From Schmidtea nova (lineage: Eukaryota): a stretch of 64,000 nucleotides of DNA. The stretch is taken from positions 262,446,001 through 262,510,000 of the forward strand of contig CM097882.1 in assembly GCA_044892505.1 (NCBI GenBank). The letters are read 5' to 3'. Below are positions 3,001-64,000 of this stretch, piece by piece (position 1 is the first letter of the stretch; each line of letters opens with the position of its first letter). The notes under the pieces are model-generated. The model saw only the letters and a program-made list of their open reading frames with translations. It searched no databases and was not told where the DNA came from. The position numbers were made by a program, and so were the translations under genes.

Positions 3001-3276
3001 CTAATTTAATCAGAAACTATTAAATTATTTTTTCTGATTAAAAAAAATAAATAAATGAAACAATATACAATACACCCATACCTCGCTTTACGGCCTAGAT
3101 ACGTTCTACGAAACTTGGCCGCAAAGCAAAAAGCCGTATAACGAATCAATTATTCTAATTATCAATGCAAACTTTAAGAATAAATTATCGATTAATTTCT
3201 GTTTAGGCGTTAATGGGTTAAATAAATACTTATTGTATTATATTGTTAAATTATCTACGTTTATTATTTAGAAAAA

Positions 3277-21840: not shown

Positions 21841-24800
21841 TAGGTTAACCATAATAAATATAAAAAGAATATTTCAAAATTGGTGCTTATTATAACATAC
21901 ACAAATAATTTAAATTCTCTGCTAGTATATTAGTTCTTTAAATTATTGTATAGTTGGTTCATTAATTTATTATTATATTTTTTATGATTAAAAATCCCGA
22001 AAAGTGTAAATTTTTACAAAAATATACTGAAGAATATCCTTTCATAAAAAGGGAAAATATGAAACAAGCAATTTGTAAATACTGGAATTACAATTTCACT
22101 ATTAGTCAAAAACACAAATCTTCTGTTTCTTCATCAAGTAAGTGTAAAACATTGACAACTTTTTCGCAAAAAGTGATTATACCGAAGAAGACAAGGTAAT
22201 TGCTATTGAATTATGTTTTGCTTATCACGTTGTAAAACATCACCAGTAATTTAATTCAACTGATTGTATTAATAATTTTATACCAAAACTATTTTTTGAT
22301 TCAAAATCAGCAATGAAATATTCGACAGCCAGAACTAAAACAATAAAACTGGTTACTAGAGTACTTGTACCACATACATTGGATTTATTTTCAGAAAAAT
22401 TGTTAAAGTGCCCATATTATAGCATTAGCACGGATGCTGGTAATCAAAAGGCCCAAAAAATATTTCCATTAATTATTCAGTACTTCAATAAGACTGGAAT
22501 TAATGTTACGTTATTAAAGTTGGGTAATTTAAAAAGTGAATCTTCCGATTTTATTTTAAGCTTTTGCATACAAACTTTAAGCGATAAAAAATTTACATTA
22601 AAAATGTATAGCATTTTGTCTAGATAATACTAATGTTAATTTCGGTGGTAGAGAAAGATTGGGGAAAAACAATGTTTTCACAAAATTAAAAGAACAATTA
22701 GGTAGCAGCATTGAAAGCATAGGATATCTGCTCATATTTTGAACAATACCTTACAAACAGTGTCAGATCAATTATTTTATGATAATGACAAAAATTGATA
22801 TTGATTCAAAATTTTTAATTATTTTGCCATATATACAGTAAGAACCGAATGTTAGAAAGAATTTTGCGATTTTGTTAATGTAGAATACAAAACGCTCCTT
22901 TCGAATTATAACACAAGATGGCTTCACCTTTTGTGGCGAGTTAAAAGAATTTTAAAATTATTCGAAGCGTTGAAATCGTTTTTAATCTGAGGAGAGAGTA
23001 CCAAAGACTTTATTAAACTTTTTTAACAATACCATGGCAGAAGCATAATTTTGGTTTATACGTAGCCAAGCTAGTTCTATACAAACTCAAATTTTGAAAA
23101 TTGAGAGACGCAATAAACCAGTCATGAAAGTTTTAGAAGTTTCTTTACGACTTGCAGAAGAAAAGAGAAATAATAAATTTTTACCAGCAAACGTGAAGGA
23201 ATTTTAAGAAAAAATGAATCTGATCTGACAAGCAAACAAGATATTCATCAATTTTATGAAACACTAGTTGCTTATTTAAGTAAATGCATGACTCCGTTCA
23301 AGAAATATTCAGTATTTTCATGGATACATTTGAAATAAAAACTAAACTGGGAAAAGGTAGAAGAAACTTGTTAATATTTAAGAGAAACAAATGTAATTTT
23401 TAATGATAAGTTCCTATTCAACTAAATTACTATCGTTTAAATGGTAGCCGACGAGTTTATCGAAAACGAGTTTATCGAAAACGAGTTTATCGAAAGCGAG
23501 TTTATCGAAAACGAGTTTATCGAATGATTAATTGATCGAATGACGAGTTTATCGAAAAATATTATTTTTAAGGAATTAAAAACTTTTAAATTTTTTCTTT
23601 ATATCCAGAAACTTAAAATGTGTTTATAATAGCATTTGTTGCAAAAAATTCGTTTTAGGTAAAAATTATTGAAAAAATTAATTTGAAAATGGATTTACAA
23701 TTCTTTATTAGTGAAAAAGGAAAACAGAAATTGTTTTTAAATGGATGTTTATTCTATAAGGACAAAAGTTTTGAAGCCAAAATATATTGGCGATGTGAAA
23801 ATTATAAAACTAAATGCAGTGCTCGTGTAATAACGGAAAACGGCATTTTAGTTAATTTAAAAATATTCACAATCATGTGATAGATGCAGCAAGCGTTCAA
23901 GCTAAAAATGTCATCAGCTGCATTCGCCAGGAAGACCTCATTACTCGTGATGCACCACAATATATTGTGGCTTCATCTTCAGCATTAGTAAGCCGAAGTG
24001 TTGCCGCCAAATTGCCCAGCGTGCCGAATCTTGCGAGAACTATACGGAATGTTAGAGCGAAGAAAAATAAAGGCCCACCGATTCCCAGATCAAGGCTTGA
24101 TATTGTATTCAGTGATGAATATACAAAACAAACAAAAATGAAAAATTTCTTTTATATGATTCTGGAGCTGAGGATGACGACCGCATATTAATTTTTTCAA
24201 CACAAGCAAATTTGGATATTTTACGGCGTTCTCTTCATTGGCACGGTGATGGTACTTTTAAAACCGTTCCTCCATTATTTGAACAATTATATACTATTCA
24301 TGGATTGGAAGATAATAGATCAATTCCATTAATATTTGGTCTCCTCCCAAATAAACGAGAGGAAACATATGTACGTTTTTTGAAAGCAGTAAAAGAATTA
24401 ACTGGTCATTGCAATCCTCAAACTATAATGACGGATTTTGAAGTCGCAATGATCAACGCATTTCAACGAGAATTTCCACTATCCAGGCATTGTGGTTGTT
24501 TTTTTCATTTTAATCAATGTATTTGGCGTAAAATACAATCATCTGGACTAAAACAGCAGTATGAAAATGATCCAGAATACGCATTAAAATTTCGAATGCT
24601 TGCTGCAATGGCATTTGTTCCAACAAATGTTATTATAAACACATTTGAAGTTTTATGTGAAAGTAATATATTTACTGACGATATGCTACCTGTGGTTGAT
24701 TATTTTGAGGACACATGGATTGGACGACCTAATCGTCTCATAGGACGCCGCCCACCGAAATTTAATCACCAATTATGGAATTGCTATGAAGCAGTATTTC

Positions 24801-25700
24801 AGAATTTGCCCAAGACGAACAACAATGGCACAAGGATGGCACAATGGATTTCAGACATTGCTGAACGCTCTTCATCCAGGAATTTGGAAATTCATCGAAC
24901 TATTAAAAAAAGAACAAAGCTTAAATGAACTAAAAATAGAACAATATCTCAGTGTACAGCAACCTCCACAAAAGAAGAAAAAATATCGTGATCTTGAAGC
25001 AAGATTGTTGCGGGTTGTCAATCGTTGGGATGAAAATATTGATATAAATGATCATTTACGATCGATTGCTCACAATCTTTCATATTAAATTTTAAAATTA
25101 TAATATAAATAATATGTACATATATAAATAAAATATTTAAAAGTTTTTAATTTTTTAAGAGACATGCTTTTTTGAGATAAAATCCACAATTCGTAAGTTC
25201 CTTAAAAATAATATTTTTCGATAAACTCGTCATTCGATCAATTAATCATTCGATAAACTCGTTTTCGATAAGCTCGCTTTCGATAAACTCGTTTTCGATA
25301 AACTCGTTTTCGATAAACTTACCGGGAATCGTTTAAATATAGTTTCTGAAGAAAAAAATAAAGGTTGAAACGATTGGGATAGTATGATAACTGCCGATAT
25401 ATGGACCTATTTTTTCTAAAATGGAGACAGAATTTTCCGAGCAATACAATGATATTTTCAAAATATGTGAATATATATTTAGTATTCCTGTACATAATGC
25501 AATGTGGAACGGATATTTTAACTAATGGAAATTCAGTGGACAGACGAACGAAATCGATTATCTTTCAATGTATAGTCAATTTCGACTTCAGTTGCAGCGA
25601 AATATATAACTATGTTCTAAAAAATAAAGTGCTTTCGAAGGATGCAAGATCTAATAGAAAATATAATTAGATTCAATTTTTGTATTAATAGTTAATGGTG
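21841..25700 (+). pseudogene. Decayed hAT (Blackjack-like) transposon interrupted by a MULE
   Basis: TAGGTTAACCATA left end at 21841. Fragments KCKFLQKYTEEYPFIK, YYSISTDAGN and IPVHNA..ERIF..QWTDERNRLS resemble the 30.9-32.8 kb transposase; many stops. Confidence 0.75.
23443..25330 (+). mobile_element. Second MULE with frameshifted FLYWCH-MULE transposase (23683-25088)
   Basis: TIRs of GAGTTTATCGAAAAC repeats; TSD GTTTAAAT at 23435-23442 and 25331-25338; WHGDGTFK, IMTDFEVA, GCFFHFNQ. Confidence 0.9.
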
Positions 25701-26108
25701 TTTTAAGGTTTTTTGAATTTATTATATATTATTTAATTTAGAATTTATTATGTTTCTATGTTATTTATGTTATGTCTTTTTATTAATCTCAATGAATTGT
25801 CAACCTTTTTTAAAAATAAATTTTGAAACTTTTTCTATTTTATTTAAGTATTTGTTGTTGTCCCGGTTGGTCGTGGTAAAAATCTGGCAACCATACGCAT
25901 GGGTGATAGTCGCACCGTCGTAACTGTCAGAGTTATGCGGGTGCGGTGAGTTTTTATCTAACCTAATGTTATATGTAGAGGTGAACTCGGGTGGGGGGAA
26001 TGGATCCATTTAAATTTTCAACTAATTAAATTTTTGATTATTAATTAAGGGGAGGTACATAGGCAAGGAACTAACATCGATTCCATTATGGTAGTAAAAA
26101 TAAAATTG

Positions 26109-26770
26109 GAATCCCTGTTACGTTACCAACGTTACCATAATTGGTTTGTTATACAAATTCGACTAACACCTTAAGCAGAGAAGATATACGATCGACCAAA
26201 CACTAGAAACCGGCGTATACAATGAGTCGTAATTTATATGAATTTATAACAATAACTTCAATTAAATGACGTAGCACATCGTTTTTTGGCATTTATGAAC
26301 AACATGACATCAATAAAGACCATTTTATTGGAGTTGAAATAGTTAAATTGCCAGATATGAATGGTTAGAAGACGACCTCATTGGAGATAAATGGGAATCC
26401 CTATAAACCCTAGAAACCGGCGTATACAATGAGTCGTAATTTATATGAATTTATAACAATAACTTCAATTAAATGACGTAGCACATCGTTTTTTGGCATT
26501 TATGAACAACATGACATCAATAAAGACCATTTTATTGGAGTTGAAATAGTTAAATTGCCAGATATGAATGGTTAGAAGACGACCTCATTGGAGATAAATG
26601 GGAATCCCTATTACGTTACCAACGTTTCCATAATTGGTTTGTTATACAAATTCGACTAACACCTTGAGCAGAGAAGATATACGATCGACCAAACACTAGA
26701 AACCGGCGTATACAATGAGTCGTAATTAATATGAATTTTTAACAATAACTTCAATTAAATGACGTAGCAC
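26109..26770. repeat. Near-identical tandem duplication (about 200-286-bp units, about 2.3 copies)
   Basis: CTAGAAACCGGCGTATACAATGAGTCG starts near 26203, 26410 and 26696. Confidence 0.9.
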
Positions 26771-27186
26771 CACTACGGCCGTTGTCGTAAGCTACGAACT
26801 ATTCGAACTTGGAATGTACAGAGCAGGCGCGTGATCAATGCCGAATGCCTGCGAAAAAAACCAGAAAACGAGAATGTCACAATAATAATTTTGATCGAAA
26901 ATCACCACAATACTAAATAGCGAATCTATAATTTATTACTCTCACATCGTTACAAACCTCGGTAGTTTAGAGGGCTAGAGTAAACATCAGGTCTAATGAT
27001 GTTACTACAGAGTGAATATATGAATTATCTCGTATACCAAATGGCCGATCCAAAACTAGATTGTCGGTTAAACAATTATAGAAATGACCGAAGGCCGGTA
27101 ATCGTCAGTGTTAATTATTGAATTCAGAAAATCCATCTCATCCGATATTATTATAGCTTCCATCGTTTATATAGTAAACCAATAAA

Positions 27187-27603
27187 TGGGAAATAAAATC
27201 GAATCCACGAGTGAATAGATCGTGTTACCATTTAAATTCAGCTTCAAACATCTACCCAAACATCCGAGACGATCCGATACTAAAAGCCATTCCCGCAGAA
27301 ATCCTTCACGAAGTGAACACCTTCATGCGACAGTGGAGACGGGCAAAGAAAGCCCGAGCCTCTTTTTCCATTTGGGAATTGGCCCAAGAATATGATGCAT
27401 GATAGCACGACAGCTCTCATTGACGATTATCGAGGATCGCGAAAAGTCTAACGATTATACTAAATGGTTCATTCTTTGGAATGACAAGAAAGCCTAGCCA
27501 AATTCGTTATCAGGGGTATATTCCAAGAGGAGATTTCTTATGTAGATTACTATTTTGGGTACCCCAAAGGCTTCTGCAACACGAATCGCAACTAAAAACA
27601 TGA
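27187..27603 (+). pseudogene. Relic of uncharacterised cassette protein A (homolog of 56846-57325)
   Basis: LKAIPAEILHEVNTFMRQWRR...FSIW and, after frameshifts, KWFILWND.KPSQIRYQGYIPRGD match the 56846 ORF. Confidence 0.7.
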
Positions 27604-28336: not shown

Positions 28337-31300
28337 CATCGGTTCTAGGGGACCGCGACGCAGTTTCGGTGGGACCGCGACGAACTAACGCATATTTATT
28401 TTTTTAAATCATTTAAAAAAAACATCCAAAAATAATTTAATCATTTCTGTTATTAAAAATCAATTCAACATTAGCCCCCTTACGGGGTAAAACTGCGTTT
28501 TGTGTCTCCAATATTTTGCGTGCATGTTGAGGTTGTATGCTAATTTGTGACGTCATTGTTTAAAATTGTAACGTTGTCACCTTGACTCGGTCCAACCTCG
28601 AGGGTTTATATAGCAGGCCTGTCTGCTTAATCTTTGCCTTTAATTGTATTTTCTCCGAGTGAACGACGCATCACATTTAGTATTTTATTTTCTTGTAAAC
28701 AGTTTGTGGTATAATAAACATTAACTTTTGCAGTATAATTTTATAATTTTATAATTTTATAATTTTATTTTATCGATTTTTTTAGATTTAAGATGCCCAC
28801 CAAAAAGAAAATGAGATATGACATTTCATATTTACAATATGGGTTTACTGTAATAAATTCGAAAGGTGAAGAGAAACCACAGTGTGTCTTGTGTTCTGAG
28901 GTGCTGGCACCCTCTTCTCTTAAACCCAGCAAGTTAAAGAGACACTTAGAAACGAAGCATCCCAGCTCAATGACCAAAGATGTCGACTTCTTTAAGCACC
29001 AAGCCGAACGACTGCACAACTCCAGGATTGATGACACAGGAATCTGGTCTGAGAACATTAAGGCTGGTCTGAGGGCGCCCTATGAGGTTTCAAGGAAAAT
29101 AGCTGCGGCCCAAAAACCACACAATATCGGAGAAGAGTTGATATTACCTTGCTGCAAAGATATAATATCAAATGTTCTGGGATGTTCGGAGCTCAGCAAG
29201 CTAAGTTACGTTTGCCTGTCAAACGACACTGTTCAGAGGCGAATAGCAGAAATGTCCGAAAACATTCTGTCGCAAGTGGTGACAAAAATTCAAAACTCAA
29301 CGTTCTCCTTCTTTGCAATCCAACTTGATGAAACGACGGATGTCGCCAACTTAGCACAACTTTGCGTCTACGTACGATATACGTATGATAAACACCTGGA
29401 AGATGAATTTTTGTTCTGTGAAACTCTCAATACCAGAACAACTGCAAAAGAAATCTTTGATAAAGTGGACAGATTCTTTGAAGCGCATGATATCAAATGG
29501 GATAATCTTATTGGCGTGTGTACTGACGGTGCTCCAGCAATGCTTGGTTGTCGTTCTGGGTTTCAAAATTTGGTTAAACAAAAATCCCCAAACATGATTG
29601 GTACACACTGCACTATTCATCGCTTTAATGGTAAAAACCATGCCTGACGAGTTGAAAAATGTTCTCAATCATGTGATTACAGCAGTAAATTTCATAAAAT
29701 CAAATGCACTTAACTCTCGTTTGTTTTCCGAGTTATGCAAAGAAAGTGATTCCGGAATTGAAAAACTCTTGTTGCACTCACACGTGAGGTGGCTTTCCAA
29801 AGGGAAAGTTTTAAAGAGGGTTTTTATACTCCATAAAAAAATTCAGCAATTTTTGAAAGATACCAAACCAGACATGCACACAAAATTCTCCGATGTCCGT
29901 TTTCTTATTTCCTTGTCATTTTTGGTAGACATATTTGAATCCGTGAATTATATCAATCTGGCGCTGCAAGGAAAAGATATCAGTGCTACATTGTCATGAA
30001 AAATTGACGGCTTTCAAAATGAAGCTCGAACTATGGATTACAAAGTTAGAGAATAAGAATTTTGCTCCATTTCCGAAGCTGAATACATATATTGATGAAA
30101 ATGAGCTTGAAGTCGATGCAGATATTCTTGAAATGATGAAACAGCATGTATTCGTTCTTAGCAAAGAAATGTCTCACTATTTTCCTGATCTGCGAGAATT
30201 TGAAAAACACTATCGGTTTATCACTAACCCATTTGAAGTATCCATTAGTGACCTGCCCTCGGACGACAATTTAGTTCAGGAACAATTTATTGATTTAATA
30301 AACGATGAGGGTGCAAAAGATGTTTTCCGTGGAACTTGCTGTAGTGACTTTTGGATTGAAATGGCACTGTCCTATCCTACGGTGACCATACGTACCACAT
30401 TGTGTGGTACAGTACAACATTTTGAACAGGCGTCCAACATTGTCAACTGCACCACATTTTGTACCACATTTAAGTCATTTCATTAATATATCGATTTAAA
30501 AAATTATCAATCATTTTTTGTAAAAGTTTTAAGTTTACTGGGTTGTTTTAGGAGTCGATATATTAATAACAAATATATCGATTTTAATTTATATCGCCGG
30601 AAGGAACGACAAATAAATTTCTTACAAAACCCTGTTTGTCAATTCACATCACTATGACATCTTTGACAGTTTAATATTTTAATTTAAATGCACTTCATAA
30701 GTAGGCTGTGTGGCTGTGTTTTAACGTGAAAAAAAATGTAATTAAAAATTCGGATGCGATTTTTTAAATATCAGCTTTATTATTATTTATTTCAACAATA
30801 AATTGTCAATTTAATTAAATTGCAAGTTAAAAGTAATAATTAATAAATATTTTATTTTCATTAAAAAAAATTCTTGAAGGATAAGCGATAATTATGTCAT
30901 CAAACGTAAATGTAAAGAGAAGAAAAGAAAATGTACTTTTACTGTTGAATTAGCAAAGGAATTTCCATATATCACCAAATGTTATAAAGAAAATGACACC
31001 AAACTAAAATGCGGCAAATGTTATGGAACATTTTCTATTACTTCGGGAAGATACGACATAAATCGACATATGCTATCAGAAAAACATAAATCTTCAGTGG
31101 CTGCAGCAGCTTCATCAAATAATATTAATAATTATATTATTAGAAACGAATATGGTGATAAAGAAAAACAGATAGCCATTGCTGAAGCAGTATTTGCTTT
31201 CCATACTGTTAATCACAACCATAGCTTCAGGTCGATGGATTGCACGTCCAAAATTTTGAGAAAATTATTTGACAACAAGTTTAAGTCTGCCAGAACAAAA

Positions 31301-36239: not shown

Positions 36240-39200
36240 AAAATATCAGCCACACGGTAAATGTTTGTGAAATCAGCGAATAACATTCAAGTTTTCAATG
36301 AAAATCCAAAATAGATAAGCATGAAAAAACACACTGATAAAATGAAACTCACATCTGATTGGTCTGCTAATTTATTAAGTAATATTACGCCATCAATTGA
36401 AAATCATTCAACTGATAAAAGCGCGTTATTTGAAACTGCTAATATTATTAAATCTTTTTTGGAGAATTTTTTGAAAGAATTTCAAAAGAACATCGACCTA
36501 ATGTATTTAAATGGATTATCTGATCTATCATAAAAGGTAAATTTTTTATTTTATTATTTAAGAGAATTTGCTGTTAATTTTGATGGTTTATTTAATAAGT
36601 TTAAAGATAATTTAATTAATGAAAATGATAATATTAATTCGTCAAACTTAAATATTGTTGGGCCAAGCAAATCAGAAACGAACTAAAAATTAAATTAAAG
36701 AAACAACAAGAAATAATCAAACAAATAACTAAATAGTCGACATTTTGACAAGCGCACAACAAAGCCTGAAAGGGTTAACAATAGATTAAATAAAATGTTG
36801 ACAACATAAACTTCCGCATGCAGAACGATGGAAGTAATAGAATAAAACTAGCTACTCAAAAATTGACAACGAGTAGGCGGATCAACCAGCACAAATCTAC
36901 AAAATAAAACAAATTAATAAAATAAAGTCACGGTTGATTAAACCGAAAACTCACTGGATTAAGCAAGTACGGACAAACGTTAAAAATAAAATATACACAA
37001 TAGCTGCATGCACAATGAATTCTGATTGGCTGGCCGGCAACATCATTTAGTATATAAGCAGCAGTCAAATTCAGTATATGATGTCATTTTTACCGAGAGT
37101 AAAATTTCTCACTGAGTCATTTTTTCTCTGTCTAAACGAATATCGATTGTTAGCGAGTCACTGTAAATTGAAAAATTCGAGGAAATAAAAGGTACGTTGA
37201 TTTAGAGTTTTTCATTTATTGTAAACCCTCATGATTTAAATTCATAAGGTTTGTCCCGAAGGTCATTCGATCTGACGGTATCTCGGCCTCTCAGCGCAAC
37301 ACATTTCCATGTGAGGGCTGATGCGGCGAGCCATTAAGTTTTCTAAAATCAGTTTGGGGGAGGGATGCACATGAATGGACGAGGTCAGTATTATAATCAG
37401 TAAAGTTTCGACAGTGTAGAGGAAAATACAGTTACTATCAGCATCGATTAATCAGTTGCAGTAAAACAGAATTAAAGGGTGCGTCTATACTTGACTGGAC
37501 AACAATGTCGTCACCGTAGAACCATACACAGACAGCCAGGGGTGGTATCATGATTATTAAAGCGTAGTAGGACCATTTCGATCGGAAGTCAATACCCTAG
37601 AAGCAAGTACGCGCAAGGAGTATAAACCTCTTGCATGAAGCCTGAATATAGGGGGATATCGTCTAGACTCCAGTAGGACGGATACATTCATAAAAGATTC
37701 CGAGATAGAGACGAACCCAAAAGAGTGACGTATCGTAGGGGGCCAGTTACTGACAATTCCGATACAAACACCGAAAACCCACTGCCGAATCATCCCTTGT
37801 TCTAAGAGAAATGTTAATATAGACGGTGATGATTTTTCACATCGAATGATGTAGAATGAAATGATGAGTGAGTATAACTGAGTAGGTGAAGTTGATCATC
37901 AATATACACATCGCTAGGTAACATCGTGAACAATGAACATTAACGAATCGATACATAAATGACAAATGTGAGTGGGCCTCACCACTAAATATAATATGAC
38001 TACGTATGAAACTGAACCATTTAGTCAAAAACACAAATGGATAATCAACAACTAACTGAGATGCAGGTAAGCAAAAATTCTTATTAATAAAATATGAGTG
38101 GATGATGTAGTATGAGGAATAGTTGGTATGATGGATGCATGTAGAGTTGACGGCTCAAACCAGGCAAAAACTAATTTAATACCATAATTCAAATGATATC
38201 GAAAAGAAGATCGCGACTATTACGAGCTCAGCCACGGAAGCCAACATTCTTAGAGGTTAATGCAATCCCAGAAACGATTAGGAGGGCAGCAGAACGCCAT
38301 CTCAGGGCGTGGAATCGTAGTCACGTAGATGCAAACGTGCGATCGGTGACATCCTCATTCAATACACTGATTCGGTGGAAAGGTGACCCATCGTGGCCGG
38401 CGTCTCCGATCGTTCAGATACCGGGACAGCAAAGATGGTTCATTCAGTTCGAGGACAAGCCGCTAAACTGATTGATGACCTTGGGGGTAGAACCTAGTTA
38501 CTAAAAACTGGCAATTATGAGGAGGCATAAAAATGGGAAATGAGCAAGATCGGTGGAACCTTGAATGCATAACACACTAATCCGCCCATTTTCTTTTTTA
38601 GATGTGTGCAGCAAAGACTCACGACTACCACGCAGAGGCAAAGGAATCCCGAAAAAGAGTCAAGGCCCTCGAGGGTCGGTTAGGCAGTTGGATGCCGAGT
38701 ACCAGTTGATAAAGACGACTTGGTTCCACCCGGAGCGGGAAAAGAGCATCCAACAGACCAGATATCGTGTTGAAAGAACAGCGTAAGAGCAGGCGCGAGA
38801 GACAGCAGCTGTCAAATTAGAGTTGAGCAATTACCTGCGGGCATCTACCAAGGAGTTCATTGAGCAACAATTACGACTGCTCATACGAACCAGCACCTTC
38901 GATCGATGGGTACAGTCTACTAGCGTCTCGATGGGCGTGCAGACTGATATGAATTTAAGTCCGAGTTCAGACGCCACGGAAAACTTGCAGAAATCAGGAA
39001 ATTAATTAAAAGTAAGAATTCTAATATTATATTAAATAAACTTGTTAGAATCCTTACAAATAAAGAAATGAAATTTTTATATCAATCATTCCCTCAATGT
39101 ATAACACATATAAAAAAGGAATCGATTTTTGAAAAAATTTCAAAAGAACAGCGATTTTATTGATTTAAATGGATTATCTGATATATCTGGCAAGCTAAAT

Positions 39201-43559: not shown

Positions 43560-45150
43560 AAATTTAATATCCAATGGACTGAAAAATATTTAGTGTCAGA
43601 GTTATTTGGTAATATAATGTGTCTTATATGTAATGATAAGATTAGCGTATGCAAGGAATACAATATCAAACGTCATTATATTTTGAAACATGAGTCAGAA
43701 TATAAGACGTATAATGAAGAAAAACGAAAATTAAAGAATTGACAACGGTAATTAGGCCACAACAAGTCAGTCTTCAAAAACATGTTGTTAAAACTGGAAC
43801 ATGTACAAAAGTTAGTTACCTTATAGTTGGGAAATTAGCTAAGAAAGGAAACCCACTTGTTGATGGAGAATTAGTAAAATAATGTCTTGTTATCGCTTTT
43901 AATGAGTACTGTCCAGACAAAGTGAATTTAGTAAAGGAAACATGTCTATCACATCAGACAATTGGCAGAAGAATTGATGACTTGGGTGATAATATTGAAG
44001 GCACGCTGAGGGATAAATTGTCTGCATGCGTTCTTTACAGTTTAGCGTTGGATGAAAGTACTGACCAAAGTGATACTGCCAAATTAGTTATTTTCATCAG
44101 AGGAATCGATATAAATTTCAATATTGTTGAAGAAATGTTGGACTTATGTCACATGAAAGGCACAACAACAGACAGGGACATTTTTGAGTTGGTTAATTTT
44201 TCATTAGATAAATTCAATGTTAAAAGGAAACACATTGATTCGATTACAACTGATGGTGCTCCTGTCCTGACTGGTAAACACAATGGTTTTATTACTTTAT
44301 TCTGTCTGTTGATCATGAGATTCTCAGTTACCATTGCTTGATACATAAACAACAATTATGTGCTCAAAAGCTAAATATGGAACATTTGATGACTGATCTT
44401 ATCAAGGCTGTTAATTTCATCAGATCACGGGGTTTAAATCATCGTGAATTTAAAGCATTCTTGAAGGAAGTTGGCATGGTATATTTTTCAAAAGTTAGAT
44501 GGCTCAGTAAAGCAGCAACCTTAAAAAGATTTCAGTTATTGTTGCCTGAAATAAAAGGGTTCTTGGAAGAAAAGATGCAATATGTGGATTTTTTTAGAAA
44601 ATGAAGAATGGTTGAATGATTTATCTTTCTTTGTAGACATTACTGAAGTATTAGCTGAACTTAATTTGCATTTACAAGGAAAGGACCAGTTGTGTTCCTC
44701 AATATTTGAGCGGATAACTAGTTTCACAATGAAATTGGAACTTTTTATAGCACAGCTAAATCTGGTAAAATTGTACACTTCGTAGTCTATCTGAAAGAGA
44801 AAAAAATTTCTGTAAACTATGAAAAATATACTAAATTGTGTGAAGATTTCCTTGAAGAGTTTACAATTAGATTTTCCGAATTTAGAAAGATTGAAAACGA
44901 GTTAAAATTGTTTAACCCTTTCGCGGACAATGACGTGTATACACGTCATACTACTGCGTTCTGTTGGGACATGCGTCCGCGAAAGGGTTAATGATCCATT
45001 TTCATTTGAATATGATAAACCACCAGAGGAGTATCAACTTGAACTAATTGAGCTGCAAAGTCAAAAGGGTTTAAAAACTTTCCATAGAGAGAACACACTT
45101 CCTTTATTTTATAAGAAATGGGGTCGCTAGGCAAAATCTTGGGGTCGCGA
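43560..45150 (+). pseudogene. hAT Charlie-type (GTF2IRD2/EPM2AIP1-like) transposase relic
   Basis: QWTEKYLV..CLICNDKISVCKEYNIKRHY, SLALDESTDQSDTAKL, ITTDGAP, VRWLSK, LNLHLQGKD; multiple stops; carries a piggyBac MITE. Confidence 0.88.
44916..44987. mobile_element. 72-bp piggyBac MITE, copy 1
   Basis: TTAA TSD on both sides; 13-bp TIR CCCTTTCGCGGAC; removal restores KLFNDPFSF in the host transposase. Confidence 0.95.
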
Positions 45151-55360: not shown

Positions 55361-56070
55361 TTAATACTATAACTCTTTGGATAAGCATAAGGGAACCCAA
55401 CACAAATAATGGTAAAATCAATACTGACACCTAATTCGTTTTTGGTTATTCGGTAAACATCATAAACGTAGCGTTGACAGAAAGTGCACAGAACTTCGTT
55501 TTAGTGTTCTGTAATCATGGCAGACATGACACCATTCCCTTATTTCTATTGTTTAATTTGATCACATTGTTTTTTACAATTTCAGAAACTCCTAAAAGAA
55601 GCTGCTGGGTTCATGGAGGGGTTAGATGAAAAATGTTCTAACAATGACTAGGGATCCCTCATCCATGATCATGCATAAAATTGCAATCTTACACTCAAGC
55701 GCCCTTGATTATTTCCCTATATAATCAAGTTGGTGATGCGCAGGGTGGTTAAACAATGATGGGCAGGTGAGCACTATCGCTAGTACTACTCCCCATTTAT
55801 GTTTACGGGTTCATAGCTGCCGTTAGAAGGACTTATGCTTTAATCATCTACTTATGTATTCCGCGTTAATCTTTCCGAAAATTTATTTTTATCATTGCTC
55901 AGTCTGCGAGAAGAATTTCATCGAATGCTCGCCTAATTATTTAATTATCTCTATTTGATATTTTGTAAAATGAATTTATACTTTTGTTCTATCTTTATCT
56001 AATCATTGGTAAAGTTAATTAAATCAATTTAAACGAACGATAAAATTCTTAAGTCAATACAACAATTTAT

Positions 56071-56667
56071 TTAATTTTTAATGAGTTCGGTAAAAACTCC
56101 CGCTGGAGGAAAAATCTCCGTCAATAATGCCTCCTCGGTCATCTGATGTAGACCATCGACTTGGCTTTGTAGTTGCTGGGCAAATAATTTTCTCTGTCTC
56201 CGCCGTTTCTGCCCAATACGCTTGCGTTTCTGGTGCGCATTTGCCGTTGAGGTGGTTGGATTTGCTGCAGGAGCCGGCTCATTTTGGTTTTCACTTAGAT
56301 CGGCGACATCCGTGCCAATGGAATTTACAGTCTTCTTTTCGGATGTCCAAGCTTGGTACGTAACCGGACGGATTTGCTCTCTGAGCTCTTTCTCAATATA
56401 TGAGGCAGTTACGGAATGGAGACATTTTCGGAGTTCTATCTTTGTAGCCTCCCATTCCATTTGATAATCGGCTGCAGTCCGCTGGGCGCGCTCGGTTTTA
56501 CTGATTTGCTCCTTCATTCGGGCCGGAGCAAACCAGCTTTTGCGCAAGTATGCGATCTGTGCCTCTGCTTTGATCAATTGTGCCTTGAGGAGACCCAATT
56601 CTTTATCCTGGGCTCTCCGAATCCGCCACATCTTTTCCAATTCTTTCTGCATCAAATCGGGGTTCAT
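56071..56667 (-). CDS. Cassette protein B: coiled-coil protein with basic C-terminal NLS-like stretch (198 aa)
   Basis: Intact ORF with TTATAG|A ATG acceptor and QKRKRIGQKRRRQRK; homologous to the relic at 38565-39005. Confidence 0.7.
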   Translation of the reverse strand: MNPDLMQKELEKMWRIRRAQDKELGLLKAQLIKAEAQIAYLRKSWFAPARMKEQISKTERAQRTAADYQMEWEATKIELRKCLHSVTASYIEKELREQIRPVTYQAWTSEKKTVNSIGTDVADLSENQNEPAPAANPTTSTANAHQKRKRIGQKRRRQRKLFAQQLQSQVDGLHQMTEEALLTEIFPPAGVFTELIKN

Positions 56668-56845
56668 TCTATAATTTATTTAGGATATTTACTCTATGAT
56701 TTAATTATATGAAAATTAAAATCTGATCATAGGATTATTAGGTCACGAAGGTGAACTATCAAAATGCGAAACAAAACTCAAAAAACAAAAATTCACTAAT
56801 GAACTATAATATTTTAATACAATTTCAACATTTGTTAATCAGTTT

Positions 56846-57325
56846 TCATCTCCGAAACAAACAATGCAATTCGTTGTTAATCGGTTTCTGACGCAGACGA
56901 GCCCAAGAGAATGAGGGTTGTCCTTTCTGGCACTCCTTGCCGAACGGTTTTCGTGGCAGGAATTTGTGCAGACCTAGTTGGCATAGCTCTCGACGAGGGA
57001 TATGCCCCCAATAAATTACACGGCTTGTCCGTCCATCTGTGTCCTTGATCAGTACGACAAGTCGGCCAAATTTGTTCGAGTACGGCCTTTGAGAAATCGG
57101 CCAGTTCGGTCCTCCTCGATAGAGTATTTGGTCGTTCCCTCCTGTCCATATTGAGAACGGGCATTTTCGGCCAAACCCATGTCGCCACTTATATATCTGG
57201 CAATTGAGGGTTCGCAATATCGATGCCGGTAGATCCTTGAGCTGTGAAATCTTTCCATTCTGTATATTCCTTTGTTCCACATTCCGTAGTTGAGTTAATT
57301 GATTCCTAGGTTCAGCTGTCGACAT
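56846..57325 (-). CDS. Cassette protein A: uncharacterised 159-aa protein
   Basis: Intact ORF with ATATAG|ATG acceptor; conserved with two divergent copies in the window. Confidence 0.7.
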   Translation of the reverse strand: MSTAEPRNQLTQLRNVEQRNIQNGKISQLKDLPASILRTLNCQIYKWRHGFGRKCPFSIWTGGNDQILYRGGPNWPISQRPYSNKFGRLVVLIKDTDGRTSRVIYWGHIPRRELCQLGLHKFLPRKPFGKECQKGQPSFSWARLRQKPINNELHCLFRR

Positions 57326-58337
57326 CTATATTACATTTATTGGATATAAAATATATGCGTTAAGGGGGAAATTCGTTGATAATTTAATTATACTGTATAT
57401 GATCACAAAAGTTACTTAAAAATAAGATTAATTTGATTTCTCTCCGCCGTGATCTACCACGGTCGGAATAAAGAGTTCATAATTAGTCCTGTGCTATATA
57501 CAGCATTCAGGAATTTTCAAATTTAATCAAGATTTCCGCGCTATATACAGCGGTCGGATTATAACTTGGGAACCGCGCCATATACGACGATCGGCCTATT
57601 TTTAGTAACTAATTTAATTTGGATTTTCCGACGCATTCCATCGCGATCGGAATTTATCGATATTAAAATTTTGTAGGCGAGATGCTGATTCCGAATGAAA
57701 TCGGACTTTGGACTACGTTGGATTTTCTCATTTCAGCGAAATTATTCAAATTTAATTTTATTTGTTGCTCACTGTTTTTCCATGCGAGAGGTTCCATTTC
57801 GATTCAATCGACAAAAATTTAAATGATGAGTATGCCCTACCATGGGGTGTCCCTCCTTATCAATCCGCCCTCCGCAATCTCCCTATTTGGCCCTCGACCT
57901 CCGTCCGTTGTGCAACCCAGAATTAAATAATTAGTAAATGGTCTGTACTAGACTCAAAATTCAATCAAATTTTCTAAATGAAATTCCACATCTAAACTAA
58001 ATAATAAAAAGGTTGAACCGCCATGTGAGACCCTGAGGCCCCACAACGACGACTCGGACTCCCTCGCCGCGTGAGCAGCATAGGAAGTATAGCTATATGC
58101 ATTAAAGTGTCAATAAAAATAATCAATGAAAAAAATAAAATGACGTTTACATATAAAATTCTAATTAAATAAAAATCATGGGTACATCATATAAGATAAC
58201 ATAAAAAATTACTTCCGTACTTGAATGTGTGGTTCCTTGTATGAAATTCGGTTCTTTCAAAAAATTACTCAAATCAAAGTTTAGTCTTGATTGTGAGTGA
58301 AAAGGTAAAACGTCTGTTGTTGTGATTTTTGGATCGG

Positions 58338-58372
58338 TATTTATACTGATCCGTCTGGTTGGATTGACCAAT
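58338..58372 (-). promoter_or_regulatory. CCAAT plus TATA promoter upstream of the two-gene cassette
   Basis: CTGATTGG (58368-58375) and TATAAATA (58338-58345) on the minus strand; candidate donors at about 58212-58220. Confidence 0.55.
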
Positions 58373-58927
58373 CAGGATCAGGCCGTCCTTCAAAGTATTT
58401 TTATTATTTTATTCTAATCTAAACATTATTTTGTTTCCTTTTCCGGTTTCTTGCTGGGTGGTCCTGATTTTTCAAATAATTAATTAATTATTTGCACTAT
58501 TATTTTATTTAATTCTATCTTTTCTTATTTCAGGCCCCCCTTTTGCGGTTGTTTACCGGTTTATTTTCAAAATTTCCTTTTACTGAAAATTTATCAATTA
58601 TTATTTGTCGTTTTATTGTTATTTTTAATTTGTTTTTCTTGCTGTTTTTATTTTTATTATTTCTTTATTGTTTCGTGCTTTTGTTCGTTTTGTTGTGTTT
58701 TTTAGGTGATTTGGCGGGCCCAACATCACCCGGGGACCCCTAAAATTGCGTCCCGCAATTAATTATACATAAATACTTATATTCATCATCCATAAAAAGT
58801 TTTATAAAGTTATACATGCAAAGAAAAATCACATAAGGTGATCGAATTTATACATATCATAAAGTTTGTCATTAAATAGTCAAAATGTAATGATTTGTCA
58901 CAATAGTTCGATAAGTTATCATAATGT

Positions 58928-59497
58928 TTATACAATTTGTTCGATCGTCTGGCTCGCTTGGGGTTGAGTTCGGGTCCTCTCGTTGATTATTTGTAGCTCG
59001 TAGTGGGTTTGGATGTGGTTGAGATGGCTCCTTATTCGTCTTTGAGCTCGGTTATCTCGTCTGGAGGTTTGGTTGTAGATTTTCTGCTTTTGTTTTAGGA
59101 TTTTTATTCTATATGAGGCAATTAGGATTGTGATTGCGATGATAGTTGTGCTGACTGCTAGGATTATGATGATTGCTATGATCCATTTTTCTTGATATTC
59201 TATTTCAGCTTGGGATAGGCTTTTTATGGGCTCTCTACCTTCTCTCAGGATTTTTCGGGTTTCCTTTAATTTCAGTTGTTGGTTACCGAAGATTTGTTGG
59301 ATTTGATGATCTTGATTGTAGGGGTATTTCTGTCGGAATTCGTTGATTTCTTTAATTACTTCTTCGATTAGGCTGTCTACTTTCTGGTAGATTCTGTCGG
59401 GTAGAACTCGTAATTGGGTTTCGGTTAGTTGTAGATCTTCTCTCTGTAAGGTAATGGTTGTTAACCATAGGAGTGTTGCTATTGCGAGCTTTCTCAT
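58928..59497 (-). CDS. Type I membrane protein (signal peptide, helical ectodomain, TM, basic tail; 189 aa)
   Basis: MRKLAIATLLWLTTITLQ signal; WIIAIIIILAVSTTIIAITILIASY TM followed by RIKILKQKQK. First ATG is 59497 (the track start is a GTG). Confidence 0.7.
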   Translation of the reverse strand: MRKLAIATLLWLTTITLQREDLQLTETQLRVLPDRIYQKVDSLIEEVIKEINEFRQKYPYNQDHQIQQIFGNQQLKLKETRKILREGREPIKSLSQAEIEYQEKWIIAIIIILAVSTTIIAITILIASYRIKILKQKQKIYNQTSRRDNRAQRRIRSHLNHIQTHYELQIINERTRTQPQASQTIEQIV

Positions 59498-59572
59498 CTC
59501 TTTTATACATCGGTCAATACAGCTTGACACTTTTTATTTTACAAAATTTATTTACACTTGGTTTTCGCACAT

Positions 59573-60634
59573 TTATACAAGGGTTTCGTTGGGTTCGTGA
59601 AAACCTTCGTCTTGAGGTTCCACCTGATTTATGGGGAGTGGCATCCATATTACCGTGCTCCTCCACATTTCGACTTCTTCTCGGTATGTGTGGGATATCT
59701 GGATCTCTTCATCTAATAAGTATTCCAGATAGTTCGCTTGTTCTGTTAGGGTTTCAATTTGTTTTTCTAGTTCTGCCAATTTTTTCTCTCTCTCTTCCTT
59801 CTCCATCATTTCGGTCACTGCTGCTGTGATACTTGTTTCTTTTATTGGTGTTGGTTTTTCTGCCAACTTCTTTCTCAGTTCTTCGTTTTCTTTTGTCAAA
59901 TTTGTTATGTTCTCTTCATAACTCTGCCTCGTTTCTTCCAGTCTTTCTTTAGTTCTTTTTAATTCTATTTTCTTCTGGGTGATCACTCCTTGATATCCAT
60001 TTATGTCTCTTTTCATGTTTTCTTCCTTGTGATTCCACATTCCGGTCAGCATACCTTTTAATTGTTCTTGATTGGCTAAATCTTCTCCCATTCTTCGTAC
60101 TTGATAAGTTAATTCTTTTATTTTCTTGGCTTGTTCTCTGATAAATTGTTGTCTTTTCTTACTCCATACTTTATTTGACGCTTCTTGACTGATCTTTTGT
60201 CCTAATTCCTCTTTTAATTCATCGATCTCTTTAAACAGTTTCCAATCATCGCTGTACACTGTTCGTTCTATTATCTCCCTTGCTTCCTTGTAAGAGTCTT
60301 TTGCCTCTTTCTTCCAATATCTTGCTTGTTCTGTGATTGACTGAATCTTATGGTCTGTTTTTATTTGTTGTCTATCCCTATCCTCTCGTCGCTCTTTCAT
60401 CATCTCTTTGTAGTATTCGTTTTGTTGTCTTAGCAGTTTGTAGACTTCTTCTATTTTTTCTCGACTTCTTTGATTCGTTTTCTCGGCTTCTCTTAGTGCT
60501 TCGGTTTGTCTTTCTAATTCCTCCTGTTTTCGATAATAGGCATGAATCCATCTCCCAATCCGCTCCATGTGATTTCTGATCATTTCGTCTTGATGTACGG
60601 TTACTTCTTGTAAGGTTACCTCTATATTTCCCAT
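59573..60634 (-). CDS. Long coiled-coil protein (353 aa, SMC/myosin-tail-like composition)
   Basis: Intact E/K/R/Q-rich heptad ORF with TTATAG|AA ATG acceptor. Confidence 0.75.
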   Translation of the reverse strand: MGNIEVTLQEVTVHQDEMIRNHMERIGRWIHAYYRKQEELERQTEALREAEKTNQRSREKIEEVYKLLRQQNEYYKEMMKERREDRDRQQIKTDHKIQSITEQARYWKKEAKDSYKEAREIIERTVYSDDWKLFKEIDELKEELGQKISQEASNKVWSKKRQQFIREQAKKIKELTYQVRRMGEDLANQEQLKGMLTGMWNHKEENMKRDINGYQGVITQKKIELKRTKERLEETRQSYEENITNLTKENEELRKKLAEKPTPIKETSITAAVTEMMEKEEREKKLAELEKQIETLTEQANYLEYLLDEEIQISHTYREEVEMWRSTVIWMPLPINQVEPQDEGFHEPNETLV

Positions 60635-60745
60635 TTCTATAATTACAGATAAAAAGAATATTTAATCAGTTTTTATTTTTATTGTTTTTGATTATTTGTT
60701 ATTTCATATTGTTTCTACATTTTATTTACATGGTTATTTCCTTCA

Positions 60746-62122
60746 TTACGCCAACCATCCTTTTTTATCCGTTTTCTCATGCCTCTCCATCTCTATGTAT
60801 AGCGTGTCTGCATATAGTCGCTCCCACAGGTTTTCCTTCCTTATAAACATTGGTTCTCCTGCTGCTAGTCCGCATTCCGTTGTTGGTTTTTCACTTGTAC
60901 TCGTATGTTTGTCTGTTTCAAAGAACTTTTCTACTGGTTTTACCATACTTTTGATTCTTATAATGACTCCTACTTTCAAGGGCCATTCTATTAGGTCATC
61001 GTATTCTCCTTTACATAGTGAGAAGAATATTGACACGTGTGTTCCTTGTCCTCTTCCGTCTCCATTTGGGTATACTTTCAATCTTATTTTAGCCCCGTTT
61101 TTCCATAAGTAAAATGGTGGGCTTATTACTGCTGTTTTCGTCATATTTCTGGCTTCTGCTAGTTTGTCTCTGAACTCTGTTACTTTCCATAGGTAAGGTG
61201 CGATTGGTAAGTCCCTTCTTTCGTCAATTTCTCGTATTAATTGATTATATTGTATTTTCATTCCTTTTCCTAATTCTTCTATGGCTATTATTTTCTTTTC
61301 CATTCTTTCGCGAGTTAGTTCAAACTGCTCTCTTGTTTCTAGTAGTAAACTCATCATTATCTTATGTGATTCTACTTCTTTTTCTAATTTCTGAATTGTC
61401 CGTTCCGTTTCTTTAGTCGTTTCGTTTGTCATTTCCACATGCATTAGTGCTGCTTCTTCTAGATGTTGTTGCATTGTTTTTCGCGTCCGCTTTTCCTTGC
61501 ATCCATGCTTGTTATATGGGCATTCTCTTGGCCTTTCGGTACATAGTTTCCAATGTTCATGTAATTTTATTTCTTCTGTTATTTCGCAATTGTTTGGACA
61601 TTTACTTACATATTGTCTGCATACTTTCTCCTCTGTTATATTCAAGTGTTCCTCTTCGATTTTTCTCCTCGTTTCTCGAGTTTCACAATACTCGCATGCG
61701 ATTTCTTCTTCTTTACATTCTTCCTTGTGTTGTTCTCTCTTCTTTAGAGTTATTGTCTGTTGGCATTTCTCGCATTCGGCTCTCTTTTCCTCGCATTTTT
61801 CCATATGGTTTTCCAGATTGCTTATTTGTCCTTGCCATGTACAAGGTGTATTTACGCACTCCGTTGTGGTGCTCATAATTTCTCTTTGGGTTGCTTTGTC
61901 CGTTCTAGTTTCGTCCAACACTATTCTTCCCTCTTTACATTCTGGACATGTTGTTATTCCTGTTGCCTCTAATTCTTGTATACATTTTGTACATATTCTA
62001 CATCCACATATCGTTTGTCTGGGTTCTCGCAATAAATTATTACATTTTCCGCATGTGAGTCTCTTGCTCCATTTTCTGTTTTCTAGTCTCAAAATTTCGA
62101 TTATTCGTTCTTCTCTGTCCAT
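60746..62122 (-). CDS. TRAF: TRAF2/3-like adaptor: RING, TRAF zinc fingers, coiled coil, MATH (458 aa, intronless, intact)
   Basis: CGKCNNLLREPRQTICGCRICTKC..CPEC RING; CVNTPCTWQGQISNLENHMEKC fingers; YLWKVTEF..SPPFY..KIRLKVYPNGDGRGQGTHVSIFF..KGEYDDLIEWP MATH. Confidence 0.95.
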   Translation of the reverse strand: MDREERIIEILRLENRKWSKRLTCGKCNNLLREPRQTICGCRICTKCIQELEATGITTCPECKEGRIVLDETRTDKATQREIMSTTTECVNTPCTWQGQISNLENHMEKCEEKRAECEKCQQTITLKKREQHKEECKEEEIACEYCETRETRRKIEEEHLNITEEKVCRQYVSKCPNNCEITEEIKLHEHWKLCTERPRECPYNKHGCKEKRTRKTMQQHLEEAALMHVEMTNETTKETERTIQKLEKEVESHKIMMSLLLETREQFELTRERMEKKIIAIEELGKGMKIQYNQLIREIDERRDLPIAPYLWKVTEFRDKLAEARNMTKTAVISPPFYLWKNGAKIRLKVYPNGDGRGQGTHVSIFFSLCKGEYDDLIEWPLKVGVIIRIKSMVKPVEKFFETDKHTSTSEKPTTECGLAAGEPMFIRKENLWERLYADTLYIEMERHEKTDKKGWLA

Positions 62123-62215
62123 TTTCTACAATAATATATACATTCGACTTGTCATTTATTTTTTGATTTTTCTTGTTTTTATTTTTACATATTTACAGTT
62201 TTCCGCTTTATTTAT

Positions 62216-62572
62216 CTATGGCTCATTCGTTGAATCTGGTTCCGCTTCGTTGTTTAATCTATTTATTACCCAACTCATCCATCCTTCTTCGGATCCTTCT
62301 CTTTCTCCTCGTGTTAAATGGTTTATTTCTATTGCTTGTCTTTGATTGGTGTTGCTTATCGTTTGATTTTCTCTGGTGAGTTCAGTTATCGCTCTTTGTT
62401 GTTCTTCTATTCTGTGTAATTGTTCAAAACAGTTGTTATAACTTTCTGATAATAACATTTGTCTTTCCGCTAATTGGTTCTGTAATGAGTTGACTGTTCG
62501 TACTAATAAATCACATTGTGCCTTCCATCTCATAGCCATAGTTATTTCAGTTGTTTCGTCCTGTTCGGTCAT
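62216..62572 (-). CDS. Short coiled-coil protein (118 aa)
   Basis: Intact ORF with ATTTAG|AA ATG acceptor and heptad pattern. Confidence 0.65.
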   Translation of the reverse strand: MTEQDETTEITMAMRWKAQCDLLVRTVNSLQNQLAERQMLLSESYNNCFEQLHRIEEQQRAITELTRENQTISNTNQRQAIEINHLTRGEREGSEEGWMSWVINRLNNEAEPDSTNEP

Positions 62573-62696
62573 TTCTAAATTATATACATCATTTACTTTG
62601 TTTTTCTAGCTTTTTACAATTTTTATAATATCGATACCCATACTATTACGGTAATGCTTTGTTATTTACACTATTATTTACAGTCATAATCCGCCC

Positions 62697-63998
62697 CTAT
62701 ACCATCATTATCGTCTTTTCCTCGTATCGTTCTTCGTCTTCTATTTGTTTCCAGAATTCTTTACCTTTCGTTCTTCTTTGGAATTCTTGCTGTATCTCTT
62801 CTGGTATTTCTATTCTTTGCTTCATAATTTTAATATCTGGCCATTGTATGGCTGTCGCTTTGTTTCTCTTTCTGTATCTCCAATATATTATTATGCTTGT
62901 CGTCATTATCCCATATGCTATTAATATTCCTATACTGATTAATCCTATTACTGTTTTTCCACGGTTTGTTGCTTTGATTTTATTCTGATTCGCTTTTATC
63001 TCATTTTGGGTTTGAGCCTCTGGCTTCTTCTCCTTCTGTACTTGATTCTTGACTTTGTTCATTACTTCTTGTGTAGACCAATGGCGGTTTAGTAGTTGTT
63101 TGAAGTTATTTTCTTTTGTTCGGTTTTCCACGTTTCCTGGTTCGATCTGTTGTTGTAGTTTCTCTGAGATCTGATATAATCCGCATTCTGGTTTTTCTGA
63201 ACCTTTTCTAGTGAAGGTACATATCGCGTATGTCTTATTTACTTCCATTTTCTTTAATTCGACTTTTTCCTTATTCCCTGTTTCTTTACAGTGGGTTAGC
63301 TTGTCTTCTTCCCCTTCTGGGTTATGCTTTGTCCAACATATTCCTTTAACTGTCTGATCGAGTCCTGTTAATGTCAGAGTTCTTTCTGTCTTTGTTAATT
63401 CTTCTTCATCGAATTTCAGTATCTCTCCTTTTTGGAATGTCTTGCAATGCTCTATTCCCTCTTGGATTCCTCTCTCCCAGATACATATACTTCCTTCTTC
63501 ATTCATTTGTATTTCTTGTATTTCGATTTCCTTGTTTGTTCGTGATTCGTCGCTTGTCTGAACTTGGTATTCCTTCCTTGGTTCGTTGTATGTTCCCCAG
63601 CATAGTTTGTTGCTACTTGTTTTCCTTATTGTTATGGCCATTTGTTCTATTATTATTCCTTTATCGATACGTTTGGACATTGCTAGTATTAATGCTATGC
63701 ATACGCACTCCTGTTGGGGTAATATTCTTTCTCTCGTTTTATTGGTGCTTTTCTCTCCTTCTCCTGGTTTATCCGTTGTGTTTCTTATCTGAGTTGCTGG
63801 TTGATCTATGGTGTTTTTGATTTCTTTCTTTGTTGGTTTTACTCTATACCATTCGAGTCCAGGCGTTTCGTATTTTTGACATACGACTGTCTTAGGTAGC
63901 CCCGACTTCTTTTCCTTTCCTATTATGCATATCCTATGTATGATTCCTCTGTCCATCCCTTCTATTCGTACTATATCCTGGTCGGATTTTCTGATTAT
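62697..63998 (-). CDS. Type I membrane glycoprotein with FN3-like Cys-containing repeats; open to the window edge
   Basis: Frame open upstream of 63956 (IIRKSDQDIVRIEG). VRIEGMDRGIIHRICI and VELKKMEVNKTYAICT resemble FN3 E-F strands; N-glycosylation sequons; TM VIGLISIGILIAYGIMTTSIIIYW then RYRKRNK. Confidence 0.7.
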   Translation of the reverse strand: MIRKSDQDIVRIEGMDRGIIHRICIIGKEKKSGLPKTVVCQKYETPGLEWYRVKPTKKEIKNTIDQPATQIRNTTDKPGEGEKSTNKTRERILPQQECVCIALILAMSKRIDKGIIIEQMAITIRKTSSNKLCWGTYNEPRKEYQVQTSDESRTNKEIEIQEIQMNEEGSICIWERGIQEGIEHCKTFQKGEILKFDEEELTKTERTLTLTGLDQTVKGICWTKHNPEGEEDKLTHCKETGNKEKVELKKMEVNKTYAICTFTRKGSEKPECGLYQISEKLQQQIEPGNVENRTKENNFKQLLNRHWSTQEVMNKVKNQVQKEKKPEAQTQNEIKANQNKIKATNRGKTVIGLISIGILIAYGIMTTSIIIYWRYRKRNKATAIQWPDIKIMKQRIEIPEEIQQEFQRRTKGKEFWKQIEDEERYEEKTIMMV

Positions 63999-64000
63999 AC

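Follow-up and report, generated by a model that had tools for sequence, protein, structure and literature searches.

The 64,000-nucleotide stretch of the Schmidtea nova genome analysed here (the window) contains, within 30 kb, three divergent copies of a gene for a small protein, hereafter gene A, which raises the question of what this protein is, what carries it and what it may do for its carrier. A preliminary description had read the copies as an old, selected and mobile protein fold. All nine of the 8-9 aa motif starts assigned to the three copies (9/9) are found in the window, in the following frames:

56846..57325, minus strand: gene A of clade 1 (57 kb copy), a 159-aa open frame (57325-56846), basic, low-confidence model helix-three strands-helix; motif starts LKDLPASIL, ILYRGGPN and SRVIYWGH
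27178..27603, plus strand: gene A relic of a third subfamily (clade 3; 27.2 kb copy), with in-frame stops and its middle piece out of frame; motif starts LKAIPAEIL (27280), KWFILWND (27462) and SQIRYQGY (27496)
38193..38471, plus strand: gene A of clade 2 (38 kb copy), shortened, relative to its relatives, by a ~400 bp deletion near 38460; motif starts VNAIPETIR, IRWKGDPS and RWFIQFED (38175-38471)

Only the 57 kb copy has a complete A frame. The interval 27187-27603 is not an open reading frame: in-frame stops interrupt it, its middle piece uses a different frame and the ATG at 27186 is likewise not in frame. Homology among the copies was assessed by shuffling, with a clade-1 profile that includes the 57 kb copy and neither of the other two. 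On this profile, the N-terminal piece of the 27.2 kb copy reached 32.3 bits, a score equalled by none of 500 shuffles (maximum 6.6), its C-terminal piece 12.0 bits (0/500) and the 38 kb ORF 8.0 bits (0/500), the middle piece of the 27.2 kb copy by itself not being significant (22/500 shuffles). Compared profile against profile, clades 1 and 2 matched over 99 columns (probability 67%, E 5e-5), and an intermediate copy from a fourth subfamily, which bridges clade-1 and clade-2 A, matched both clade profiles (E 2e-35 and 1.5e-7, single comparisons). The three window copies align significantly and are real homologs. In a 33-row tree they fall into three separate groups, the 27.2 kb copy joining the relics L035, L036, L122, L125 and L073 with support 99/97. 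This copy is a dead relic of an LTR-borne gene pair; no LTR end, promoter or remnant of the partner gene (B, described below) was recognised beside it, and the LTR origin is the likely one given its kin, B lying downstream of A in its clade mate L125 and in the related L071 and L080.

The other two copies lie, each together with a gene B, in LTRs, one of which belongs to a giant retroelement that extends beyond the window:

55603..58725, minus strand: 3' LTR of a 29.7 kb Burro-type element, 3123 bp, TG...CA, TSD GCTT
G000:C1:262528212-262531334: partner (5') LTR of the same element
56071..56667, minus strand: gene B of clade 1, a 198-aa open frame with coiled coil, SIGTD and KRKRIGQKRRRQRK
58726..64000, minus strand: 3' internal region of the element, with accessory ORFs and the polyprotein tail
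58928-62605, minus strand: accessory ORFs of 201 aa (two hydrophobic stretches), 362 aa (coiled coil), 459 aa (TRAF-zinc finger/MATH) and 129 aa (coiled coil)
36656..39000, plus strand: clade-2 LTR beginning TGTTGGGCC, 3' end not recognised
38602..39000, plus strand: gene B of clade 2 behind the acceptor TTTTCTTTTTAG, broken and 3'-truncated, matching the B of locus L040 at E 1e-52

The two LTRs of the 29.7 kb element are 99.84% identical (5 differences in 3123 bases), and the element is young. Six nucleotides past the LTR (at L032, after the 5' LTR end) lies a primer-binding-type site, TGGGGGCTCAGCCGGGAT, identical in clades 1 and 2, which we take to resemble a tRNA-Pro primer site. The interior encodes a RING ORF, a Gag CCHC zinc knuckle and then protease, RT, RNase H and integrase in Gypsy order, a fusion glycoprotein (PF24664, E 6.8e-66) upstream of the protease match, between gag and protease, and, as cargo, ankyrin repeats and a TRAF/MATH ORF; the polyprotein is interrupted in this copy. 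Among the four accessory ORFs at 58928-62605, three have a YAG 1-2 nt ahead of their ATG. As far as the accessible text of the published description goes, Burro/GYPSM1 are giant Gypsy-like LTR elements of planarians (PMC6431247), and the window element, assigned from that description, matches them in its size of ~30 kb, its Gag zinc knuckle, RT-RH-IN, ankyrin, MATH/TRAF and accessory ORFs and in an env-like fusion protein placed between gag and protease. Several of the BIR, BCL2-like, dUTPase-like and SUMO-like motifs were found in Burro by HHpred according to the same text (PMC6431247); none of them gave a Pfam match at E 0.01-0.1 in the 29.7 kb element. The clade-2 LTR of the window is probably truncated at its 3' end, and a relative in that clade (L063) is followed by the same primer site, a RING ORF, Gag and ORF1, with 46-65% identity to the window element. 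Gene A sits in 3.1-3.5 kb LTRs of Burro-type giant env-bearing Gypsy elements. It is mobile, as had been proposed, being carried in the LTRs of a giant Gypsy-type element, but it is no free-standing mobile fold: it is a passenger gene fixed inside a retroelement LTR and paired with B.

This pairing is found well beyond the window, B lying downstream of A at 38/40, 36/40 and 27/30 loci of three subfamilies (101/110 in total), and the two genes almost certainly constitute an LTR-borne coding cassette. Between clades, amino-acid identity is 21% for A and 32% for B, and blastn finds no DNA match over the ORFs between the 57 kb and 38 kb LTRs. Judged by sequence, the N-terminus of B is a coiled coil and its C-terminus a hydrophobic segment, and the protein has an Arg-rich, putatively RNA-binding stretch and a conserved S/G-V/I-Q/G-T-D motif; the Arg-rich stretch and a putative oligomerisation surface are seen in B and not in A. 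At the site of the conserved motif, clade-2 B proteins read SVQTD or GVQTD and clade-1 B proteins SVGTD or SIGTD. The clade-2 version, S-M-G-V-Q-T-D and variants just past the coiled coil, is a putative counterpart of the LC8/DYNLL-binding motif, given in the available part of its description as [D/S]-K-X-[T/V/I]-Q-[T/V]-[D/E] (PMC3078936), from which it differs by M for K, the clade-1 forms departing further as SVGTD/SIGTD. The genome also contains near-identical dynein light chain genes in tandem clusters (L202-L209, on G000:C2), with 61 family matches genome-wide.

Searched with the 57 kb ORF, the same genome returned 3977 candidates. The 150 that were scored have 85-100% identity, and for 87 of them a partner on the same strand lies 24-27.5 kb away. 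The corresponding searches for other subfamilies yielded 3193, 4147 and 3881 candidates, again with 150 scored in each. Solo LTRs with a 4-bp TSD account for 12 of 44 clade-1 and 13 of 50 clade-2 loci, all preselected for open A frames and with both ends findable in 23 and 28 of them, respectively. LTRs bearing A and B span at least four deep subfamilies, and most of the old A copies found in these searches are broken. Three copies occur within 30 kb because such LTRs are abundant genome-wide, without local clustering; the copies themselves thus stand and the idea of a local cluster falls. Elsewhere, at G000:C3:133804198-133858129, three LTR copies with identical scores lie 26.7 kb apart; either a tandem element has an LTR in common or the assembly contains a duplication here.

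Both A and B are under purifying selection, with dN/dS of about 0.1-0.45. Pairwise dN/dS was 0.21-0.38 for A1 and 0.20-0.45 for A2, values biased downward since these members were chosen by protein score and open frame; it was 0.15-0.18 in a young family (25 distinct copies) and 0.11-0.24 for B2. Over half of the A1, A2 and B pairs had reached saturation in dS. The four frames that do not share the third codon position gave mostly 0.9-2.8. The mirror antisense frame resembled the sense frame, so that selection alone leaves the strand undecided; the ATGs and splice acceptors decide it. Ten copies collected by DNA search, broken ones included, show a third-position excess over the three codon positions (0.12/0.10/0.19 for A, 0.10/0.08/0.27 for B). 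The earlier reading of A as old and selected agrees with the low dN/dS among copies and with this codon-position-specific conservation.

Protein A itself belongs to no recognised family, by sequence or by structure, in line with the preliminary description, and it maps to no ordinary transposon domain. Pfam profiles matched none of the 44 clade-1 members (0 families) and gave only stray sub-threshold matches in at most 3 of 50 clade-2 members. The window A and an alignment of A2, each compared with the near-length sequences of a 5.8-billion sequence set, found no homolog, and neither did an alignment of B under the same restriction; the A1 profile had 0 matches among 1.84 billion representatives, and comparison with PDB sequences gave nothing significant. 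These collections are mostly microbial, which leaves room for relatives in other flatworms. The ESM Atlas contained no usable match for A; weak clusters of plant 'hypothetical' and MULE-linked proteins (0.87-0.90, with low recognition) were rejected. Two separately built A models (mean pLDDT 53-55) agree in a shared core of helix-three strands-helix. Foldseek searches at E≤0.001 returned nothing from PDB for the A models and nothing from BFVD for the A2 model, and in VIA the best values for these low-confidence models were Z 3.2 (rmsd 4.8, 105 aligned) and Z 3.7 (rmsd 3.8, 75 aligned). GNAT-like rows among the VIA results were read as a common arrangement and not as a fold match. Both A and B proteins are basic (median pI 9-10), and clade-1 A has invariant Trp, Lys, Thr, Tyr and Ser residues.

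The LTRs contain signals from which the expression of A and B can be predicted, together with a conserved non-coding block near their 3' end (in the motifs, / marks the splice site):

58340..58372, minus strand: reverse CCAAT box and TATAAA, ~350-385 bp into the clade-1 LTR
57326..58212, minus strand: intron predicted from sequence motifs, GAA/GTAATT ... TAG/ATG
58220, minus strand: alternative donor CAA/GTACGG, from sequence
37025..37057, plus strand: reverse CCAAT box and TATA box of the clade-2 LTR
37189..37197, plus strand: predicted donor AAG/GTACGT of the clade-2 LTR
55709-55833, minus strand: conserved non-coding block holding a stem-loop, with the motif CCUUCUAACGG upstream
55759..55796, minus strand: the stem-loop, common to clades 1 and 2 at the DNA level

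The CCAAT and TATA pair was found at 28 of 44 clade-1 and 34 of 50 clade-2 loci. About 120 nt past the TATA, within 80-170 nt of it, a donor AG/GTAYG is present in 24/34 clade-2 LTRs against 2/204 control windows, and a donor GAA/GTAA in 12/28 clade-1 LTRs against 0/168; as the motifs were picked after viewing the sequences and the copies are related, these counts, like those that follow, measure conservation and are not independent trials. A YAG stands 0-3 nt before the ATG in 29/35 A1 and 36/42 A2 genes and in 11/12 B1 and 14/17 B2 genes, compared with 9.2% of 13,569 other ATGs. An ATG is missing near the start in 9/44 clade-1 and 8/50 clade-2 A copies, and the 38 kb copy has CAA instead of CAG ahead of its ATG. 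An AATAAA follows the A stop within 200 nt in 41/44 and 45/50 copies (14.5 and 11.3 expected), mostly at 38-55 nt, the 57 kb copy having ATTAAA instead. Spliced expression of A and B from the LTR along these lines is thus a likely prediction. Four sets of contigs of unrecorded type contained no junction at the predicted intron, a result that counts neither for nor against splicing. No second conserved TATA was found near the LTR end (at most 6/32 and 10/34 per 20-nt bin, with TATA-like maxima at different places in the two clades), which suggests that the upstream TATA drives the genomic RNA.

Conservation across clades is highest in the last ~230 nt of the LTR. In an alignment of 41 sequences, made up of L127 and 40 of the 56 sequences collected, 96.8% of the cells of the stem-loop are paired, against 22-42% in slid controls, and the loop is usually GCAA. 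Two-sided changes occur in 7/11 pairs, mostly along the clade split, a number that 386/500 shuffles also reach, and single-sequence folding gave z values of only -1.8 and -1.2. Rfam had no match on the LTR; twister- and HDV-like readings of this block were considered as candidates. Its role may be that of a packaging signal, a response element or a catalytic RNA, and the stem-loop could equally serve packaging or dimerisation.

What A and B might do for the element can be sketched from the predicted transcripts. The LTR promoter (CCAAT plus TATA, ~380 bp in) would give a short exon without coding sequence that is joined by splicing to A, whose poly(A) signal lies ~45 nt past the stop, or alternatively to B, and default processing would yield short mRNAs for A and for B. 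Genomic RNA made from the 5' LTR would have to keep the ~0.9 kb intron and pass the internal poly(A) signals, so that the element would need a switch. Since Rev-type factors and CERV solve this early/late problem, we propose, as a tentative reading that stops a little short of an even chance, that A and B are early regulators made on short spliced LTR RNAs that switch the element to full-length RNA. B, with its coiled coil, putative LC8-type dimerisation motif and Arg-rich stretch, would be the likelier RNA binder, a Rev/CERV-like factor; A (basic, with conserved Trp/Arg) would assist it as a nucleic-acid-binding co-factor, and a candidate for the cis element is the covarying stem-loop. That the pair acts in RNA processing or export at all is, for us, similarly close to balanced. 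Nothing links A itself to RNA metabolism, its models being of low confidence and no motif being recognisable in it; what resembles Rev is found in B, in features of a generic kind (a basic patch and a coiled coil), and clade-1 B has G at the Q position of the LC8 motif. In a broader and more speculative form, possible rather than probable, the Burro LTR might be a two-gene regulatory operon that combines alternative splicing with internal polyadenylation in a very long R/U5, its two new proteins (the fold of A being undescribed) acting on the LTR stem-loop to pass from early short RNAs to genomic RNA, a logic of complex retroviruses evolved independently in an invertebrate Gypsy lineage.

The basic character of both proteins would also suit a role on DNA. 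A, with B, might be a transcriptional activator or anti-silencing factor acting on LTR DNA or chromatin against PIWI/H3K9me3, functions for which Tat/Tas and VANC proteins are models. Early placement on the shortest transcript fits a positive-feedback activator, A has changed faster than B from clade to clade, which would suit a protein that binds specific sequences, and Burro elements are PIWI-repressed in planarians, at least in the accessible part of the relevant report (PMC8532177). Yet no DNA-binding motif was recognised in A, and this reading leaves unexplained how full-length RNA would escape the intron and poly(A) signals of the LTR; we consider it rather unlikely.

The cargo of the element suggests another possibility, less probable still, namely that A is a host-modulating or particle-associated accessory protein to which the LTR position merely gives expression. 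The same element carries several host-signalling domains (TRAF/MATH, RING, ankyrin), in four internal accessory ORFs a YAG likewise stands just before the ATG (a fifth lacks this layout), and MMTV sag, as far as the available text describes it, is an LTR-encoded host modulator (PMC11998498). Against this, the other cargo clearly matches host families whereas no match was found for A and B, and the Arg-rich stretch of B points to the nucleus or to RNA.

If A and B lay in U3 behind their own upstream promoter and genomic RNA came from a second promoter near the LTR 3' end, no switch would be needed; the strong conservation of the last ~230 nt across clades would fit such a promoter, but no TATA-like motif is conserved there and the 3' block behaves like paired RNA, which makes this arrangement highly improbable. 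That the ORFs are non-functional by-products of LTR sequence, as the mostly broken old copies could suggest, is largely refuted and hardly credible, given the codon-position-specific conservation, the protein similarity that persists where blastn sees no DNA similarity over the ORFs and the conserved start context.

With the switch reading as the working proposal, several known systems offer points of comparison. In MMTV, a vertebrate retrovirus, U3 encodes sag, a transmembrane superantigen. The positions of A and B are past the TATA box, and therefore in R/U5 if the TATA promoter makes the genomic RNA. Each Burro-type solo LTR is, moreover, a predicted self-contained two-gene unit, a further difference from MMTV. 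In the portions of the literature available, sag is an accessory ORF inside the LTR under purifying selection (PMC11998498) and MMTV Rem a Rev-like export factor from spliced RNA (PMC2661877); the likeness lies in an LTR-internal ORF under purifying selection and in a Rev-like factor from spliced RNA, the latter predicted for A/B. According to the accessible part of its description, CERV of the C. elegans element Cer1 is the product of a spliced mRNA, and unspliced Gypsy RNA depends on it for export (PMC10309623). Here too, a lineage-restricted regulator of a Gypsy-type element, from an mRNA that in our case is predicted to be spliced, would serve unspliced RNA; compared by description, A and B differ in being two small ORFs wholly inside the LTR (PMC10309623).

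The element class and the existence of LTR-encoded genes in retroviruses are already known, the latter from MMTV sag in the text available (PMC11998498). The accessible text on Burro/GYPSM1 does not mention a gene inside the LTR (PMC6431247), and an exact-phrase literature search, a weak instrument, found no description of genes inside Burro LTRs, which Grohme 2018, its supplements, Repbase or a figure of PMC6431247 may show. In the usual view LTRs are non-coding and solo LTRs inert promoters; here two selected genes, with predicted splice and poly(A) signals, are carried by the LTRs of a retroelement lineage that ranks among the largest known. If confirmed, they would offer small, RNAi-tractable handles on unspliced-RNA control and PIWI resistance of giant env-bearing elements in planarian cells, would add a protein family for which no homolog was found and would mean that LTR-masked annotation hides genes. 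Should the operon reading hold, thousands of solo LTRs would be potential trans-acting expression units in the host.

The rest of the window holds remnants of several other mobile elements. A broken protein-primed-type DNA polymerase B (6836-10283, plus strand; PF03175, E 1.6e-19) is Polinton/Maverick-like, and a stretch related to it, with 65% DNA identity, adjoins a Burro element at L033. Remnants of hAT-type transposases occur at 3250-6442, 28763-30486, 30878-32786, 43883-44341 and 47290-48068, with DUF4371, hAT dimerisation and BED/Spin-doc finger domains. Two MULE elements (19163-21098 and 23436-25337) carry subterminal tandem repeats of 14-15 bp besides their terminal inverted repeats, and in the first of them a FLYWCH-MULE frame of 475 aa is open. 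The minus strand has a TBP-like ORF at 2337-2741, and, just upstream of the 27.2 kb relic, positions 26103-26770 contain a near-perfect 207-bp tandem duplication with a partial third copy.
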